From the NCBI RefSeq assembly GCF_009931435.1, contig NZ_CP043414.1: DNA of 64,000 bases; one strand, 5' to 3'. This DNA comes from Escherichia coli. Its GTDB lineage: Bacteria; Pseudomonadota; Gammaproteobacteria; Enterobacterales; Enterobacteriaceae. The notes beneath the pieces were generated by a model. It was not told the origin of the DNA, did no database searches, and was given only the letters and a program-made list of their open reading frames with translations. A program made the position numbers and the translations under genes. Every line of letters starts with the position of its first letter. Position 1 is the stretch's first letter. Shown in pieces: positions 7,440 to 28,866 of this stretch.

Positions 7440-9722
7440 ATGTCCGAGCTTAATGAAAAGTTAGCCACAGCCTGGGAAGGTTTTACCAAAGGTGACTGGC
7501 AGAATGAAGTAAACGTCCGTGACTTCATTCAGAAAAACTACACTCCGTACGAGGGTGACGAGTCCTTCCTGGCTGGCGCTACTGAAGCGACCACCACCCT
7601 GTGGGACAAAGTAATGGAAGGCGTTAAACTGGAAAACCGCACTCACGCGCCAGTTGACTTTGACACCGCTGTTGCTTCCACCATCACCTCTCACGACGCT
7701 GGCTACATCAACAAAGCGTTGGAAAAAGTTGTTGGTCTGCAGACTGAAGCTCCGCTGAAACGTGCTCTTATCCCGTTCGGTGGTATCAAAATGATCGAAG
7801 GTTCCTGCAAAGCGTACAACCGCGAACTGGACCCGATGATCAAAAAAATCTTCACTGAATACCGTAAAACTCACAACCAGGGCGTGTTCGACGTTTACAC
7901 TCCGGACATCCTGCGTTGCCGTAAATCCGGTGTTCTGACCGGTCTGCCAGATGCTTATGGCCGTGGTCGTATCATCGGTGACTACCGTCGCGTTGCGCTG
8001 TACGGTATCGACTACCTGATGAAAGACAAATACGCTCAGTTCACCTCTCTGCAGGCTGATCTGGAAAACGGCGTAAACCTGGAACAGACTATCCGTCTGC
8101 GCGAAGAAATCGCTGAACAGCACCGCGCTCTGGGTCAGATGAAAGAAATGGCTGCGAAATACGGCTACGACATCTCTGGTCCGGCTACCAACGCTCAGGA
8201 AGCTATCCAGTGGACTTACTTCGGCTACCTGGCTGCTGTTAAGTCTCAGAACGGTGCTGCAATGTCCTTCGGTCGTACCTCCACCTTCCTGGATGTGTAC
8301 ATCGAACGTGACCTGAAAGCTGGCAAGATCACCGAACAAGAAGCGCAGGAAATGGTTGACCACCTGGTCATGAAACTGCGTATGGTTCGCTTCCTGCGTA
8401 CTCCGGAATACGATGAACTGTTCTCTGGCGACCCGATCTGGGCAACCGAATCTATCGGTGGTATGGGCCTCGACGGTCGTACCCTGGTTACCAAAAACAG
8501 CTTCCGTTTCCTGAACACCCTGTACACCATGGGTCCGTCTCCGGAACCGAACATGACCATTCTGTGGTCTGAAAAACTGCCGCTGAACTTCAAGAAATTC
8601 GCCGCTAAAGTGTCCATTGACACCTCTTCTCTGCAGTATGAGAACGATGACCTGATGCGTCCGGACTTCAACAACGATGACTACGCTATCGCTTGCTGCG
8701 TAAGCCCGATGATCGTTGGTAAACAAATGCAGTTCTTCGGTGCGCGTGCAAACCTGGCGAAAACCATGCTGTACGCAATCAACGGCGGCGTTGACGAAAA
8801 ACTGAAAATGCAGGTTGGTCCGAAATCTGAACCGATCAAAGGCGACGTCCTGAACTACGATGAAGTGATGGAGCGCATGGATCACTTCATGGACTGGCTG
8901 GCTAAACAGTACATCACCGCACTGAACATCATCCACTACATGCACGACAAGTACAGCTACGAAGCCTCTCTGATGGCGCTGCACGACCGTGACGTTATCC
9001 GCACCATGGCATGTGGTATTGCTGGTCTGTCCGTTGCTGCTGACTCCCTGTCTGCAATCAAATATGCGAAAGTTAAACCGATTCGTGACGAAGACGGTCT
9101 GGCTATCGACTTCGAAATCGAAGGCGAATACCCGCAGTTTGGTAACAACGACCCGCGTGTAGATGACCTGGCGGTTGACCTGGTAGAACGTTTCATGAAG
9201 AAAATTCAGAAACTGCACACCTACCGTGACGCAATCCCGACTCAGTCTGTTCTGACCATCACTTCTAACGTTGTGTATGGTAAGAAAACTGGTAACACCC
9301 CAGACGGTCGTCGTGCTGGCGCGCCGTTCGGACCGGGTGCTAACCCGATGCACGGTCGTGACCAGAAAGGTGCTGTAGCATCTCTGACTTCCGTTGCTAA
9401 ACTGCCGTTTGCTTACGCTAAAGATGGTATCTCCTACACCTTCTCTATCGTTCCGAACGCACTGGGTAAAGACGACGAAGTTCGTAAGACCAACCTGGCT
9501 GGTCTGATGGATGGTTACTTCCACCACGAAGCATCCATCGAAGGTGGTCAGCACCTGAACGTTAACGTGATGAACCGTGAAATGCTGCTCGACGCGATGG
9601 AAAACCCGGAAAAATATCCGCAGCTGACCATCCGTGTATCTGGCTACGCAGTACGTTTCAACTCGCTGACTAAAGAACAGCAGCAGGACGTTATTACTCG
9701 TACCTTCACTCAATCTATGTAA
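7440..9722 (+). CDS. pflB: Pyruvate formate-lyase (formate C-acetyltransferase 1), glycyl-radical enzyme
   Basis: 760-aa [46 protein letters not shown]... with the C-terminal glycyl-radical region (RVSGYAVRF). Confidence 0.98.
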
Positions 9723-13974: not shown

Positions 13975-15123
13975 TTACACGTGAGCAACGGGTTTCGGCG
14001 TATGACCGGCGTTGCGAAGCAGCATCAGCAAATAGATAAACGATACGCTGGCGATCATGATAAACAATAAATTATCGGAGAAATTCTGCATTAGCATAGC
14101 GGTAAATGACGGGCCAAGCAGACTTCCTACGGTATAGCTCAACAGTAAGGCCTGGTTCATCGCCACCAGTTGATGATGTTCAACTTTCTCGCAAGCCCAT
14201 GCCATCGCCACCGGATATAGCGTAAAGCCAGCGGCACCGAGGATGAATAACGCTGGGGCCATCGCCGCCTGGCTAAGCATCGCGATACTGCCGAGAATGA
14301 CGACAAAGACCTGAACACGCAACACCAGCAGTCGACCAAACTTATCCGCCAGACGTCCAATCGGCCATTGTCCAAGGATACCCGCACTGACCAGTACCGC
14401 CATCCAGAAACCAATGCTGGCATTGCTCACCCCTTTGTGATTGAGGTACAGCGGCATCAGGCCATATAGAGATCCCAGAACGATTCCTGAGATAATGCAG
14501 CCATTCACGCCAAGCCGCGCCTGACGGAGTTTTAGCATGGACGTAATTAACGTCGAATCATGGTTTTCAGCCTGCTGATTCAGCACACGCGTAAACAACA
14601 GCGGTAAGATCCCTGCCAACGTCAAACCTGTAACCCACGGCAATACGGACATCAGCTCGGTTGAAACTTTGCTGACCAGTAACTGGCCTAAAAACGTTCC
14701 CACGTAATAAACCATCATATACGCAGCAAGCAAACGCCCACGGTTACGTGACGTCCCACTGCACATCAGCGCGCTCTCAACAACCACCCAAATCATGGCA
14801 CAGCCGACGCCGGCGACAAAACGCCAAGCCAACCAGCTCCAGAATCCAATCATCAGGCCAAGGCCGGCACAGCCAGCGGCAAAAATGAAGGAGGCCAGAT
14901 AATAGCTGCGGTTAAAGCCAATGCGCTTAATGACATACCCTGTCAGCAATGTACCGACCAGGTTGCCGGTAAAATAGGATGAGCTGACAACGCCTACCTG
15001 CCATGTGGACATATGTTCCTGGGCGAGCCAAAGCGGCACGAGTGTATTTAACACTGCGATCGCCAAAGTCAACAAAAGCAGGCCAGACAGCAAAAGCATG
15101 ACAGGCCGGGTATACGTGGACAT
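13975..15123 (-). CDS. ycaD: MFS transporter YcaD
   Basis: 382-aa [40 protein letters not shown]..., a 12-TM-type hydrophobic profile. Confidence 0.93.
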
Positions 15124-23781: not shown

Positions 23782-26700
23782 TTAGTCAAACGGAGGTGGG
23801 GCCAATACTTCACGATTACCATTGTGCCCCTGTTCGCTGACAATCCCCTGCGCTTCCATCTGTTCGATAATCCGCGCCGCACGGTTATAACCAATGCGGA
23901 ACTGACGCTGTACGCCTGAAATTGACGCTTTGCGTTTTTCAGTGACAAACTGCACTGCCTGATCGAACAACGGATCCAATTCTTCAGCGCCATCGAAACC
24001 ACCCGCACCACCTTCGCTTTCGCTGTCGGAGGTGATGCCGTCAACATACTGTGGGCGACCACGCGCTTTCCAGTCCTGCACCACGGCATGAACTTCCTGA
24101 TCGCGAACAAAAGCACCATGAACACGTACCGGCAACGTGGAGTTCGGCCCAGAGTAAAGCATATCCCCCATACCCAGCAGTGATTCCGCGCCAGCCTGAT
24201 CAAGAATGGTACGTGAGTCAATCTTACTGGATACGGTAAAGGCGATACGGGTCGGAATATTCGCTTTAATCAGACCAGTAATAACATCAACCGATGGACG
24301 CTGAGTTGCCAGTACGAGGTGGATACCTGCAGCACGGGCTTTTTGCGCCAGACGTGCTATCAGCTCTTCCACTTTTTTACCTACCGTCATCATCAGGTCG
24401 GCAAATTCGTCCACCAACACCACAATGTACGGTTCCTTTTTCAGCACCGGATGCTGGGCATCCATACTGTCACCCGGCTTCCAGTACGGGTCTGGAATCG
24501 GACGCATCATGCGATCGGCTTCAGCAATTTTTTCGTTATAACCCGCCAGATTACGCACACCCAGTGCAGACATCAGTTTATAACGACGCTCCATCTCGTT
24601 AACACACCAGCGCAGCGCGTTGGCGGCATCTTTCATATCGGTAACGACTTCCGTTAACAGGTGCGGAATGCCTTCATAAACCGAAAGCTCCAGCATTTTC
24701 GGGTCGATCATGATGAAACGCACATCTTCTGGCTGTGCTTTATAAAGCATGCTCAGGATCATCGCGTTCACACCGACAGATTTACCGGAACCGGTAGTCC
24801 CCGCAACCAACAAGTGCGGCATTTTCGCCAGATCGGCAACCACCGGCTCACCGGCGATATCTTTACCCAGCACCACGGTTAATGGCGACGGATTATCGCG
24901 GAATTTGGCGTTATCCAAAACTTCGCGCAGATAAACGGTTTGTCGTTTTTTATTCGGTAACTCCAGACCTACATAAGGTTTGCCAGGAATAACTTCAACG
25001 ACACGCACCGCCACCGTCGAAAGTGAACGGGCAAGGTCACGTGACAAGTTAGAAATACGCGCCGCTTTTACGCCCGGTGCCAGGTTCAATTCAAAGCGAG
25101 TGATAACCGGCCCCGGAGAATAATTGACGACATCGGCTTTAATACGGAAATCAGCCAGACGCGCTTCCACCAGACGCGCCATTTGTTCAAGCGCAAAGGT
25201 ATCTACCGGCTCCACTTCGCTCGGCGGCGGTGTCAGCAAATCCAGAGAAGGCAGCGGCGTCGTAGGTTTATGCAACGGACGGCTGTCGCCATTACGCATT
25301 AACAGCGGATGAAGCAGGGTATCCTGCGGCTGCGGCGCAACTGGCTGTTGCGGCTGCTGATATTGCTGCTGTGGTGCAACCGGCTGTTGTGGCTGCTGAT
25401 ACTGCGGCTGTGGTGCAACCGGCTGTTGCGGCTGCTGATATTGCGGCTGCTGTGCAACCGGTTGTTGCGGCTGCTGATATTGTTGCTGCGGCGCAACTGG
25501 TTGTTGCGGCTGCTGATATTGTTGCTGCGGTGCTACCGGTTGTTGCGGCTGCTGTACAGGTTCAACAATTGGCGTAAACAGCGGTTCGTGTGGACCATCA
25601 TCCAGCAACGCTTTCATTGGCGAAAATTCAAAATCATCCAGCGAGAACGGATTCGCCCCAGCCGGTTGTTCGCCGGAATAACGTTGTTGTTGAGTTTGAG
25701 CAAACTGACGAGCCAGTTCTGCCTCTGCCGCAGCATCTGCATCTTCTGTGTTCACGGGCACATCATGTTGATACTGTTCGCCATAGCGTTGCTGCTGCGT
25801 TTGGGCGAACTGACGTGCCAGTTCATCCTGCTGCATCGCATCGATTTCATCATCGTTGTACTGATCGCCAGAATCGTACTGATTGCGCTGGGCTTCACGG
25901 GCTTTTTCTTCTGCTGCACGCTGTGAGGGCAGCTTAATGCCATATGACGCCAGTTCACGACGAGTTGGCACGCGGATACGTTTCGGTCGTGGCAACTGCG
26001 GGCCAATCCCCTCTTTGACCTGCGGACGCGGTCCACCGCTATTTGCCAGACTGAAGACTGGTGCGGCAACGGTTGCGGCAGCCCCCGTCGCCAGTGTCGC
26101 TTTTTTCACGCCAGATGCCAGAGGGGAAACAGCGGCAGCGGCTTCCACTGGAGGTACTGCTGCAACAGAAGGTGCTTTAAGCGAAGATTTGATCGGTTCT
26201 GGTTCTTTAACCGGTTCAGGAATCGGTTGATACCAGGCCGCAAGTTGTTCACGTTCACGGGCACGCTTCTCTTCCACTTCTTCAAAATAGTAAAGCGGCG
26301 GACGCGCGGGTTTTGTCTCTTCTACAATGGGTTCAGGCTCCACAACAGGCTGCTGTTCAACGGGTTGCGGCTGTTGGTACAACGGCTCCTGAGCGGCTGG
26401 CTGCTGATAAGTTTGCTCCGTCTGGTATGTAGACTGTGGAGCAAAAGTGGATTGCTGCTCTTCGGCTTGCCAGGCGTTACCTGCCACCGGTTGTTCTGGC
26501 GCAGGGGCGTAATACGGCTGTTGCGCAGACTGTTCCGGCGCAGGAGCGTAGTAAGGTTGTTGCACAGGCTGTTCAGCTGCAGGCGCATAATACGGCTGCT
26601 GTGGCTGTACAGGTTGTTGCAGCGGCTCATTATATTGCACTGCAGGCTGCGCATATTGTGACTGCTGTGGGTAACCTTCCGGTGCAGGTGCAATAACCGG

Positions 26701-27810
26701 TTCTCCCGTTTGCGGCCCCGGTACAGGCTGCCAGGCTACTGTAGGTTGCGTAGGTGGAACATCAACAGAGGCAACTGGCGGCGTCTGAGTCACAGGTTCA
26801 ACCGGTGCAGCCCAGCTTTGTGTCGCCGTGGTAGCAGCAGCTGCTACAGCAACAGGTTCGGTAATTGGCGCACCGTTTAATAATGGATCGTATTCGTCAT
26901 ATTCTGGCTGCGTTGCACGATTGCCCGAAAAGAGGACGTCGTCAGGGTCGGCAGCCACACCGCGTGCAGTGTAGGTAATCTCTTCTTCATCATCCATCCG
27001 CTTACCGGAGAACAACGCAGCATCTGTTTGCCGCCCCATCGGATTAATGAATTTTTCCGCCAGACGTTTACGACGTGCTAGCGCGCCGCGAAGAATACGG
27101 GCACGGCGCGATTCATGCTGTTTGCCGTGATTTTCATCTTCATATTCTTCGTCGTCTTCATACTCATCTTCATCGACCCAGGTATCATCGCGACGGGTAC
27201 GATTACTGGCGAAGGTGAGAATGTTTAAAATCCAGCCGCCGAGTTTTTCAGCAATGGTCACCCATGACCAACCGGTGAACAGCGTCAGGCCCGCTGCCCA
27301 AACGCAGAGCAGCGCAATAGTTCCCCCGCTACTGTGTAGCAGTGGTTGTAGCGTAGTGCTTAGTAAGCTGCCGATGACGCCACCGGAGGCAAAATACCAG
27401 ATATCGTCAGCGTTGATTGCCGCCAGACCACAAGAGGTAAGGATTAGCGCCAAAACGCCAATGATGCGTAGCGAAACGGCAAAATAATCAATGTATTCGT
27501 CACTGGACTGATGACGCCAGGCAAACCAACAACCGCCGACGATAATGACGGGAATGGTGTAAGCCATCACGCCAAAAATAAAGAACAGCGTATCTGCCAG
27601 CCACGCACCGGGCATTCCACCTAAATTATGGATAGGCTCATGCCAGGCCGTTTGCGACCAGCTGGGGTCCGAAGGGTTAAAGCTTAGTAAGGCAGCCATC
27701 AACCAGACGGCAAACAGGACAATAAGGATCAGCAACGCCTCCAGAAGTCGGCGGCCGCTACTTAACTTTGTCAATGTGACTTCTTTGTCTTCAGTGTATT
27801 CCTGGCTCAA
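23782..27810 (-). CDS. ftsK: DNA translocase FtsK (with Pro/Gln-rich repeat linker)
   Basis: 1342-aa ORF: N-terminal membrane domain, long PQ-rich linker, C-terminal motor (Walker A GTTGSGKS) and gamma domain. Longer than the 1329 aa I recall for K-12, consistent with linker-repeat polymorphism. Confidence 0.97.
25321..25560 (-). repeat. In-frame tandem repeats of about 39 bp (about 6 copies) encoding [10 protein letters not shown](Q/P)QY units in the FtsK linker
   Basis: Direct reading of the sequence (ctgttgcggctgctgatattgctgctgtggtgcaaccgg... repeated) and the translated protein. Confidence 0.8.
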
Positions 27811-27888
27811 GAAAGGCTCTCCAGGTTACAGGCTTTTCCTGCCCGATGCTAAAACGGACAACAGTACCAGGTTACCCTAGTACTGTTG

Positions 27889-27904
27889 CTGTATGGATTA
27901 ACAG
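27889..27904. promoter_or_regulatory. LexA (SOS) box CTGT-N8-ACAG upstream of ftsK (dinH promoter)
   Basis: ctgtatggattaacag is a perfect CTGT-N8-ACAG palindrome frame about 80-95 bp upstream of the ftsK start; ftsK is known to have an SOS-inducible promoter. Confidence 0.6.
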
Positions 27905-27944
27905 GAGTGTAATCAAAATACGCCGATTTTGCACCTGTTCCGTG

Positions 27945-28439
27945 TTAGCGCGTCTTAATAACCAGACGATTACTCTGCTTGACTTCTTCCATAACAACGT
28001 ATGTCCGCGTGTCATTGACGCCAGGCAGACGCAGCAGGGTTTCCCCTAGCAACTTACGGTAAGCCGACATATCCGGCACGCGTGTTTTCAACAGGTAGTC
28101 GAAATCACCGGATACTAAATGACACTCCTGAATTTCTTCAAGTTTTTGTACAGCGGTATTGAATTGTTCAAACACATCCGGTGCGCCACGATTCAGAGTA
28201 ATCTCAACGAATACCAGAAGTGATGCATCCAGATAATGGGGGTTCAGCAGCGCTGTATAGCCCTGAATAAACCCTTGTCTTTCCAGCCGACGCACACGCT
28301 CAAGGCACGGCGTTGGGGAAAGTCCCACACGTTTAGAAAGCTCGACGTTAGAAATACGCCCATCCTTTTGCAACTCATTAAGAATGTTACGATCGATACG
28401 GTCGAGATCTTTGCCAGGGCGCTTCTTGCTATCTACCAT
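27945..28439 (-). CDS. lrp: Leucine-responsive regulatory protein
   Basis: ATG at 28437-28439 (MVDSKKRPGKDLDRIDRNILNELQKDGRISNVELSKRVGLSPTPCLERVRRLER...) gives 164 aa; the track ORF carries an 18-codon upstream extension. Confidence 0.97.
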   Translation of the reverse strand: MVDSKKRPGKDLDRIDRNILNELQKDGRISNVELSKRVGLSPTPCLERVRRLERQGFIQGYTALLNPHYLDASLLVFVEITLNRGAPDVFEQFNTAVQKLEEIQECHLVSGDFDYLLKTRVPDMSAYRKLLGETLLRLPGVNDTRTYVVMEEVKQSNRLVIKTR

Positions 28440-28866
28440 TATTATTGTCTCTCTGTATTCCTTCCCTACTCCTGTCTGACCCTGAAACATCACTGTTCAG
28501 AGTCGCTACCCGTCACGATAGACCGAAATCATTAAGATTCACGGCGCGCAATGCCTGGTCTACGGTGAGAAGACCGTTGCCTGGTGGCAGCTATCGACAT
28601 CACGAATGGCGTCTGTCCACGCCATACGTAGATTTCACTAGCACGGTAAACATGGTATTTACATGCATGGTTATGCGCATATAAGAATACTGTTTTTTTT
28701 CTTCCTCGAATGTTTTCGCAAAACACCAGGGGATTGTCAAAGCAAAACATCGATTTTTAGTACAACATGCCAGATATTCATTAACAGGGGCGTTTATTCA
28801 TCATTTAATCGGCTTATAACGCGGGAAATTTAAGTAGCAGAGGTGATAATGCCGGAGGGAGTTTGA

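Follow-up and report, generated by a model that had tools for sequence, protein, structure and literature searches.

The closest described counterparts of the site studied here are the LexA operators of Escherichia coli, among them those of sulA, recN, uvrD and lexA, which are likewise 20-bp CTG-N10-CAG palindromes placed over the transcription start site or the -10 element, and which likewise act by occupying the core promoter or start until RecA-stimulated cleavage of LexA relieves the repression. Cleavage and derepression are established knowledge of the SOS response (summarised in PMC6590174). The gene ftsK is listed among the UV-induced genes with an upstream SOS box (PMC3009722) and appears in a review's list of genes with a known SOS box (PMC6590174). 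Two promoters have been described for it, a dispensable one inside lrp and an essential one, dinH, which had been characterised earlier as an SOS promoter, and ftsK is expressed more strongly during the SOS response (PMC4080785, for the latter citing Wang & Lutkenhaus 1998). The dinH/ftsK box itself goes back to Lewis et al. 1992/1994, Wang & Lutkenhaus 1998 and Dorazi & Dewar 2000, as cited in PMC4080785 and PMC7567609; our statements on dinH are based on reviews and on Reg-Seq annotations. For Vibrio we found nothing firm in the V. cholerae SOS regulon paper, where ftsK occurs only in the reference list, and the mentions of ftsK and LexA in PMC9621596 concern prophage endolysins, not the ftsK promoter.

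We analyzed a stretch of 64,000 nt of an E. coli genome (contig NZ_CP043414.1), referred to as the window, in which lrp and ftsK are separated by an intergenic gap of 134 bp. The features discussed below are the following, all on the minus strand:

23782..27810, minus: ftsK gene, coding for 1342 aa; its TTG start codon (27810) is conserved across Enterobacterales
27819..27822, minus: ftsK Shine-Dalgarno sequence GGAG, located 8 nt upstream of the start codon, with CCTGGAGAGCC almost unchanged throughout the alignment
27858..27889, minus: conserved RNA hairpin with a 14-bp stem and a GUAA loop, followed by UCCGUUUU
27889..27904, minus: LexA operator (SOS box) of the ftsK dinH promoter, assigned by K-12 identity, top matrix score and conservation
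27896 (K-12 933138) and 27900 (K-12 933134), minus: published ftsK transcription start sites, both inside the box
27906..27911, minus: candidate -10 element TACACT, matching TATAAT in 4 of 6 positions and abutting the 20-bp box
27929..27934, minus: candidate -35 element GTGCAA, with a 17-bp spacer to the -10, in the conserved block GGTGCAAAA
27945..28439, minus: lrp coding sequence, 164 aa, with 100% identity to Lrp of many Enterobacteriaceae

Identity with the K-12 dinH/ftsK box

The initial annotation had described a match to CTGT-N8-ACAG at 27889-27904, about 80-95 bp upstream of the ftsK start, and had attributed it to the known SOS-inducible dinH promoter of ftsK, as a case of conserved regulation rather than anything new. 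The exact match, CTGTATGGATTAACAG (also ctgtatggattaacag), does lie at precisely 27889..27904 of the window. On the gene strand, the ftsK side being the minus strand, the 16-mer reads CTGTTAATCCATACAG, and the 20-mer TCCTGTTAATCCATACAGCA, spanning 27887..27906, is an imperfect palindrome that fits the LexA operator consensus TACTGTATATATATACAGTA with CTG and CAG 10 bp apart. The 16-mer occupies positions -94 to -79 relative to the ftsK start codon (79-94 nt upstream), in agreement with the distance given in the annotation, and begins 40 nt after the lrp stop codon. Both the TTG start of ftsK and the lrp gene are the same as in the RefSeq annotation of the matching K-12 region.

A stretch of 25 nt around the palindrome, ACTCCTGTTAATCCATACAGCAACA, is identical in 25 of 25 positions to the published ftsK SOS box of E. 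coli K-12 (PMC3009722 Table 4). Compared with MG1655, the whole lrp-ftsK gap differs in one base, a G to A change at window position 27878, which is located outside the box and in the hairpin downstream of it, where an A-U pair thereby replaces a G-U pair. The 52-nt segment comprising promoter and operator is 100% identical in 5417 of the 5426 complete E. coli records. With the same 25 nt, the same distances to lrp and ftsK and the same promoter elements, we see no substantive difference from the K-12 locus: the box is the dinH/ftsK operator itself and not merely a relative of it. It is thus already known and adds nothing new, as the annotation had anticipated; it represents a textbook case within the LexA regulon of E. 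coli and connects DNA damage with the segregation and division protein FtsK. What our analysis adds to the known box is a species-level map of the operator, including its loss in one lineage, and the nesting of the promoter before a hairpin at the 3' end of lrp. We consider it almost certain that the site acts as LexA operator of the SOS-inducible dinH promoter of ftsK, a reading in line with PMC4080785, PMC6590174 and PMC7567609. For this assignment, the sequence, the score, the position of the start sites and the conservation were established here; LexA dependence and induction by damage are taken from the K-12 literature.

Motif statistics

The bare CTGT-N8-ACAG pattern occurs twice in the 64-kb window, compared with 0.54 expected copies, and two or more copies were reached in 10 of 100 shuffles; thus the pattern is not significant on its own. 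For the matrix scan that the initial annotation had proposed as a check we used a symmetrised 20-bp weight matrix based on the 17 published E. coli LexA boxes that Table 4 of PMC3009722 lists besides that of ftsK. The ftsK box scores 15.98 bits and is the best match in the window. Sites scoring that high are expected 0.067 times per 64 kb (300 dinucleotide-preserving shuffles), and 6% of the shuffled windows contained any such site, counted anywhere and not just in the 134-bp gap. Among the known boxes, which range from 4.4 to 28 bits in a leave-one-out scoring, the ftsK box is located at the low end; it is a weaker match than other LexA operators (16 bits vs. 18-28 bits for most). A score in the style of the heterology index, which is our own approximation from the same 17 sites and not the published matrix, gave 10-11.4 for ftsK vs. 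0.3-9.3 for the 17 others. This makes it the weakest of the 18 and would mark it as a real but weak operator.

The second exact copy of CTGT-N8-ACAG is found at 63400..63415, inside artJ, and further matrix matches are present in pflB (14.1 bits; 8892..8911) and ycaD (13.0 bits; 14128..14147). In total, the window contains three sites of at least 13 bits (0.25 expected). The matches in pflB, ycaD and artJ are intragenic and hence probably due to chance.

Promoter geometry and transcription start sites

K-12 coordinates were transferred by the relation window position = 27810 + (933224 - K-12 coordinate). A comparison with mapped ftsK promoters, also suggested in the initial annotation, places both published start sites within the box: 933134 is the b0890 start site determined by SMRT-Cappable-seq (PMC6131387 supplement 4), and 933138 is the experimentally validated LexA-regulated ftsK start used by Reg-Seq, citing Lewis et al. 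1992 (PMC7567609 supplements 1 and 11). In Reg-Seq, ftsK/LexA serves as a gold-standard repressor site, with a repressor footprint from -8 to +4 of 933138 that is assigned to LexA; negative, repressor-like values extend from -8 to +5, with little signal in the right half-site of the box, and positive, RNA polymerase-like signals are seen at about -38 to -35 and about -16 to -11 (PMC7567609). A later Reg-Seq study reports that LexA footprints, including that of ftsK, vanish upon addition of H2O2, as they do at sulA, recN and tisB (PMC12133099).

Start sites and footprints come from published work, whereas the assignment of TACACT as -10 and GTGCAA as -35 element is inferred by us. TACACT ends 6 nt upstream of start site 933134, and among 73 distinct intergenic sequences the surrounding TACACTCCTG shows little or no variation. 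The polymerase-like Reg-Seq signals fall at the places proposed for these two elements. At position -39, Reg-Seq found a strongly expression-increasing effect (PMC7567609), which fits a G-to-T change that creates TTGCAA. An alternative -10 element, TACAGC (27893..27888), combined with TTGATT as -35, was rejected, as both published starts lie upstream of the start it predicts; TTGATT is moreover not conserved, whereas TACACT and GTGCAA are. Neither the dinH promoter nor the hairpin was picked up by a generic promoter and terminator scan (27600..28600), which we attribute to thresholds too strict for a -35 hexamer with three of six matches and for a stem that lacks a U-run next to it.

Conservation across Enterobacterales

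A single scan anchored on Lrp provided a set of 80 Enterobacterales species. In 76 of them the orthologous box is the best matrix match within the lrp-ftsK gap, at a distance of 36-53 nt from the lrp stop codon and of 52-143 nt from ftsK, with scores from 11.9 to 21.0 bits. The box is present from Escherichia to Serratia, Pectobacterium, Photorhabdus and Proteus, and the boxes of Serratia, Edwardsiella, Hafnia, Proteus, Photorhabdus and Xenorhabdus score better (19-21 bits) than that of Escherichia. We found 20 variants, all of which contain TCCTG...[A/G]TACAG with CTG and CAG 10 bp apart (CTG-N10-CAG). Substitutions are concentrated in the spacer and leave CTG and CAG invariant; a CTGG variant is tolerated among the species, as it is in the ruvA and cho boxes.

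Alignment of the 73 distinct gaps revealed four conserved blocks, i.e. GGTGCAAAA, TACACTCCTG…ATACAG, the hairpin, and CCTGGAGAGCC…TTG, the last of which corresponds to the Shine-Dalgarno sequence and the TTG start. The flanking TCC and the -10 element are as invariant as the box itself, so that the conservation is in part due to the promoter and not to LexA.

The box is gone in three Providencia species (L055, L057 and L059) and in Moellerella (L056). In these genomes the segment carrying promoter and box is deleted, leaving …CGCACTGCAG… instead of …TACACTCCTGTTTATGCATACAG…, and the lrp-ftsK gap is AT-rich and 401-919 bp long; no comparable LexA box was detected in this gap nearer to ftsK. Judging from these sequences, SOS control of ftsK seems to have been lost in the Providencia/Moellerella lineage of the Morganellaceae.

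The start codon of ftsK is TTG in nearly all of the 80 species, with ATG in Morganella only. Conservation of such a weak start suggests that there may be selection for low translation initiation of ftsK.

A conserved hairpin at the 3' end of lrp

The hairpin begins where the LexA box ends, with base 27889 shared by both, and is part of both the 3' end of lrp transcripts and the 5' UTR of ftsK transcripts. The 86-nt leader RNA folds with an energy of -33.2 kcal/mol (z of -3.6 relative to shuffles), and compensatory double changes occur in all 8 consensus pairs among 65 sequences. A search of Rfam returned no credible family over the lrp-ftsK region. Published transcript ends coincide with the foot of the stem: Term-seq mapped a 3' end to 933176, which precedes the ftsK ORF by 48 nt and corresponds to the last paired base (window 27858; PMC7815308), and the full-length lrp transcript determined by SMRT-Cappable-seq runs from 932327 to 933177, i.e. 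to window 27857 (PMC6131387). The end at 933176 does not depend on Rho and has an intrinsic-terminator score of 1.70, compared with the authors' cut-off of 3.0, and read coverage across the hairpin is nearly flat, with 475 reads upstream and 419 downstream (PMC7815308).

With intrinsic terminators the hairpin thus shares a stable, conserved stem-loop after the stop codon, a 3' end at its foot and independence of Rho. Unlike them it has no U-run directly after the stem, where UCCGUUUU is found instead, its score remains below 3.0, and coverage hardly drops. The hairpin is kept in Providencia and Moellerella despite the loss of the box, which ties it to lrp rather than to ftsK. We read it as an lrp 3'-end element, either a weak terminator or a protective stem.

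The dinH promoter is nested in the lrp 3' UTR, about 43 nt upstream of the lrp transcript end. As it is located between the lrp stop codon and the hairpin, transcripts of ftsK must read through the hairpin. Every dinH transcript would then carry the stem at about +12 to +43, and one may speculate that it acts as a leaky attenuator capping ftsK induction, or that an SOS-inducible RNA of about 43 nt is released, so that LexA and hairpin would form one composite control module across Enterobacterales; we put this forward only tentatively and consider it rather doubtful. Promoter, operator and hairpin lie within about 80 nt and are conserved as a unit, an arrangement that could matter for the balance between basal and induced ftsK expression.

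Model of repression and alternative explanations

In the mechanism that we propose, RNA polymerase would use a weak sigma-70 promoter in the 134-bp gap (-35 GTGCAA, 17-bp spacer, -10 TACACT) and would initiate within the palindrome. When bound to CTGT-N8-ACAG, a LexA dimer would cover about -5 to +12 of start site 933134 (-8 to +8 of 933138) and hinder initiation; upon DNA damage, RecA-stimulated self-cleavage of LexA would free the promoter and ftsK expression would increase. The left half-site deviates from the consensus (TCCTGTTA vs. TACTGTAT), and for this reason repression of ftsK is probably partial. Partial repression would probably suit an essential gene that needs basal expression from dinH in normal division. 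In contrast to the operators of sulA, recN, uvrD and lexA, the ftsK box controls an essential division and segregation gene from the very promoter that provides its basal expression, and it lies within the 3' UTR of the gene preceding ftsK.

The palindrome might instead be a chance match without function. As mentioned above, CTGT-N8-ACAG is not enriched in the window (2 vs. 0.54 expected copies, with 10% of the shuffles reaching 2), and the other fair matrix matches, in pflB, ycaD and artJ, are intragenic and probably random. However, the ftsK box has the top matrix score and lies within a 134-bp intergenic region, its conservation reaches from Escherichia to Photorhabdus and Serratia, with the identical sequence in essentially all E. 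coli, and published functional data exist for it; conservation and published footprints effectively refute this reading, to which we assign a negligible probability. It would also be conceivable that the palindrome is conserved as initially transcribed region or as the site of another regulator, with LexA having no real role. The equal invariance of the -10 element and the TCC flank would agree with this, as would the weak right half-site in the Reg-Seq footprint and the low score of the ftsK box among the known boxes. Nevertheless, the variation between species obeys the rule for LexA, with CTG and CAG fixed, CTGG tolerated and the spacer free, the repressor footprint in Reg-Seq is lost under H2O2 as at sulA, recN and tisB, and the literature assigns the site to LexA; hence we regard a site independent of LexA as highly improbable.

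The ftsK operator could furthermore have a second role, in which the bound repressor blocks read-through from lrp and from the promoter inside lrp, and thereby shifts lrp 3' ends and the supply of ftsK. The box does lie inside the lrp 3' UTR, lrp transcripts (932327 to 933177) pass over it, and the dispensable ftsK promoter is located inside lrp. Yet LexA is not known as an efficient roadblock, and the Term-seq coverage is nearly flat (475 vs. 419 reads), which makes such an additional role unlikely. Repression of dinH by LexA at the start site remains the reading that we adopt.

Other observations in the window

FtsK comprises 1342 aa in the window and 1329 aa in K-12; the difference is located in self-similar linker repeats (25324..25557), which give multiple offset BLAST matches to K-12. 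Between ybjQ and ybjP we found an island of about 2.5 kb (56486..59046) with about 30% G+C that is absent from MG1655. It contains one ORF of 613 aa with pentapeptide repeats (56636..58477, minus strand), annotated as 'pentapeptide repeat-containing protein' or 'hypothetical protein'. Of 5426 complete E. coli genomes, 1128 carry the island, in most cases with no more than 80-90% identity. Identity to K-12 (MG1655) is about 97% in the vicinity of ftsK and declines to 92-94% in the art/ybj region, towards the high-coordinate end of the window, a divergence greater than usual within E. coli. For the lrp-ftsK segment, the nearest complete genome is that of strain 2013C-4282 (99.5%).
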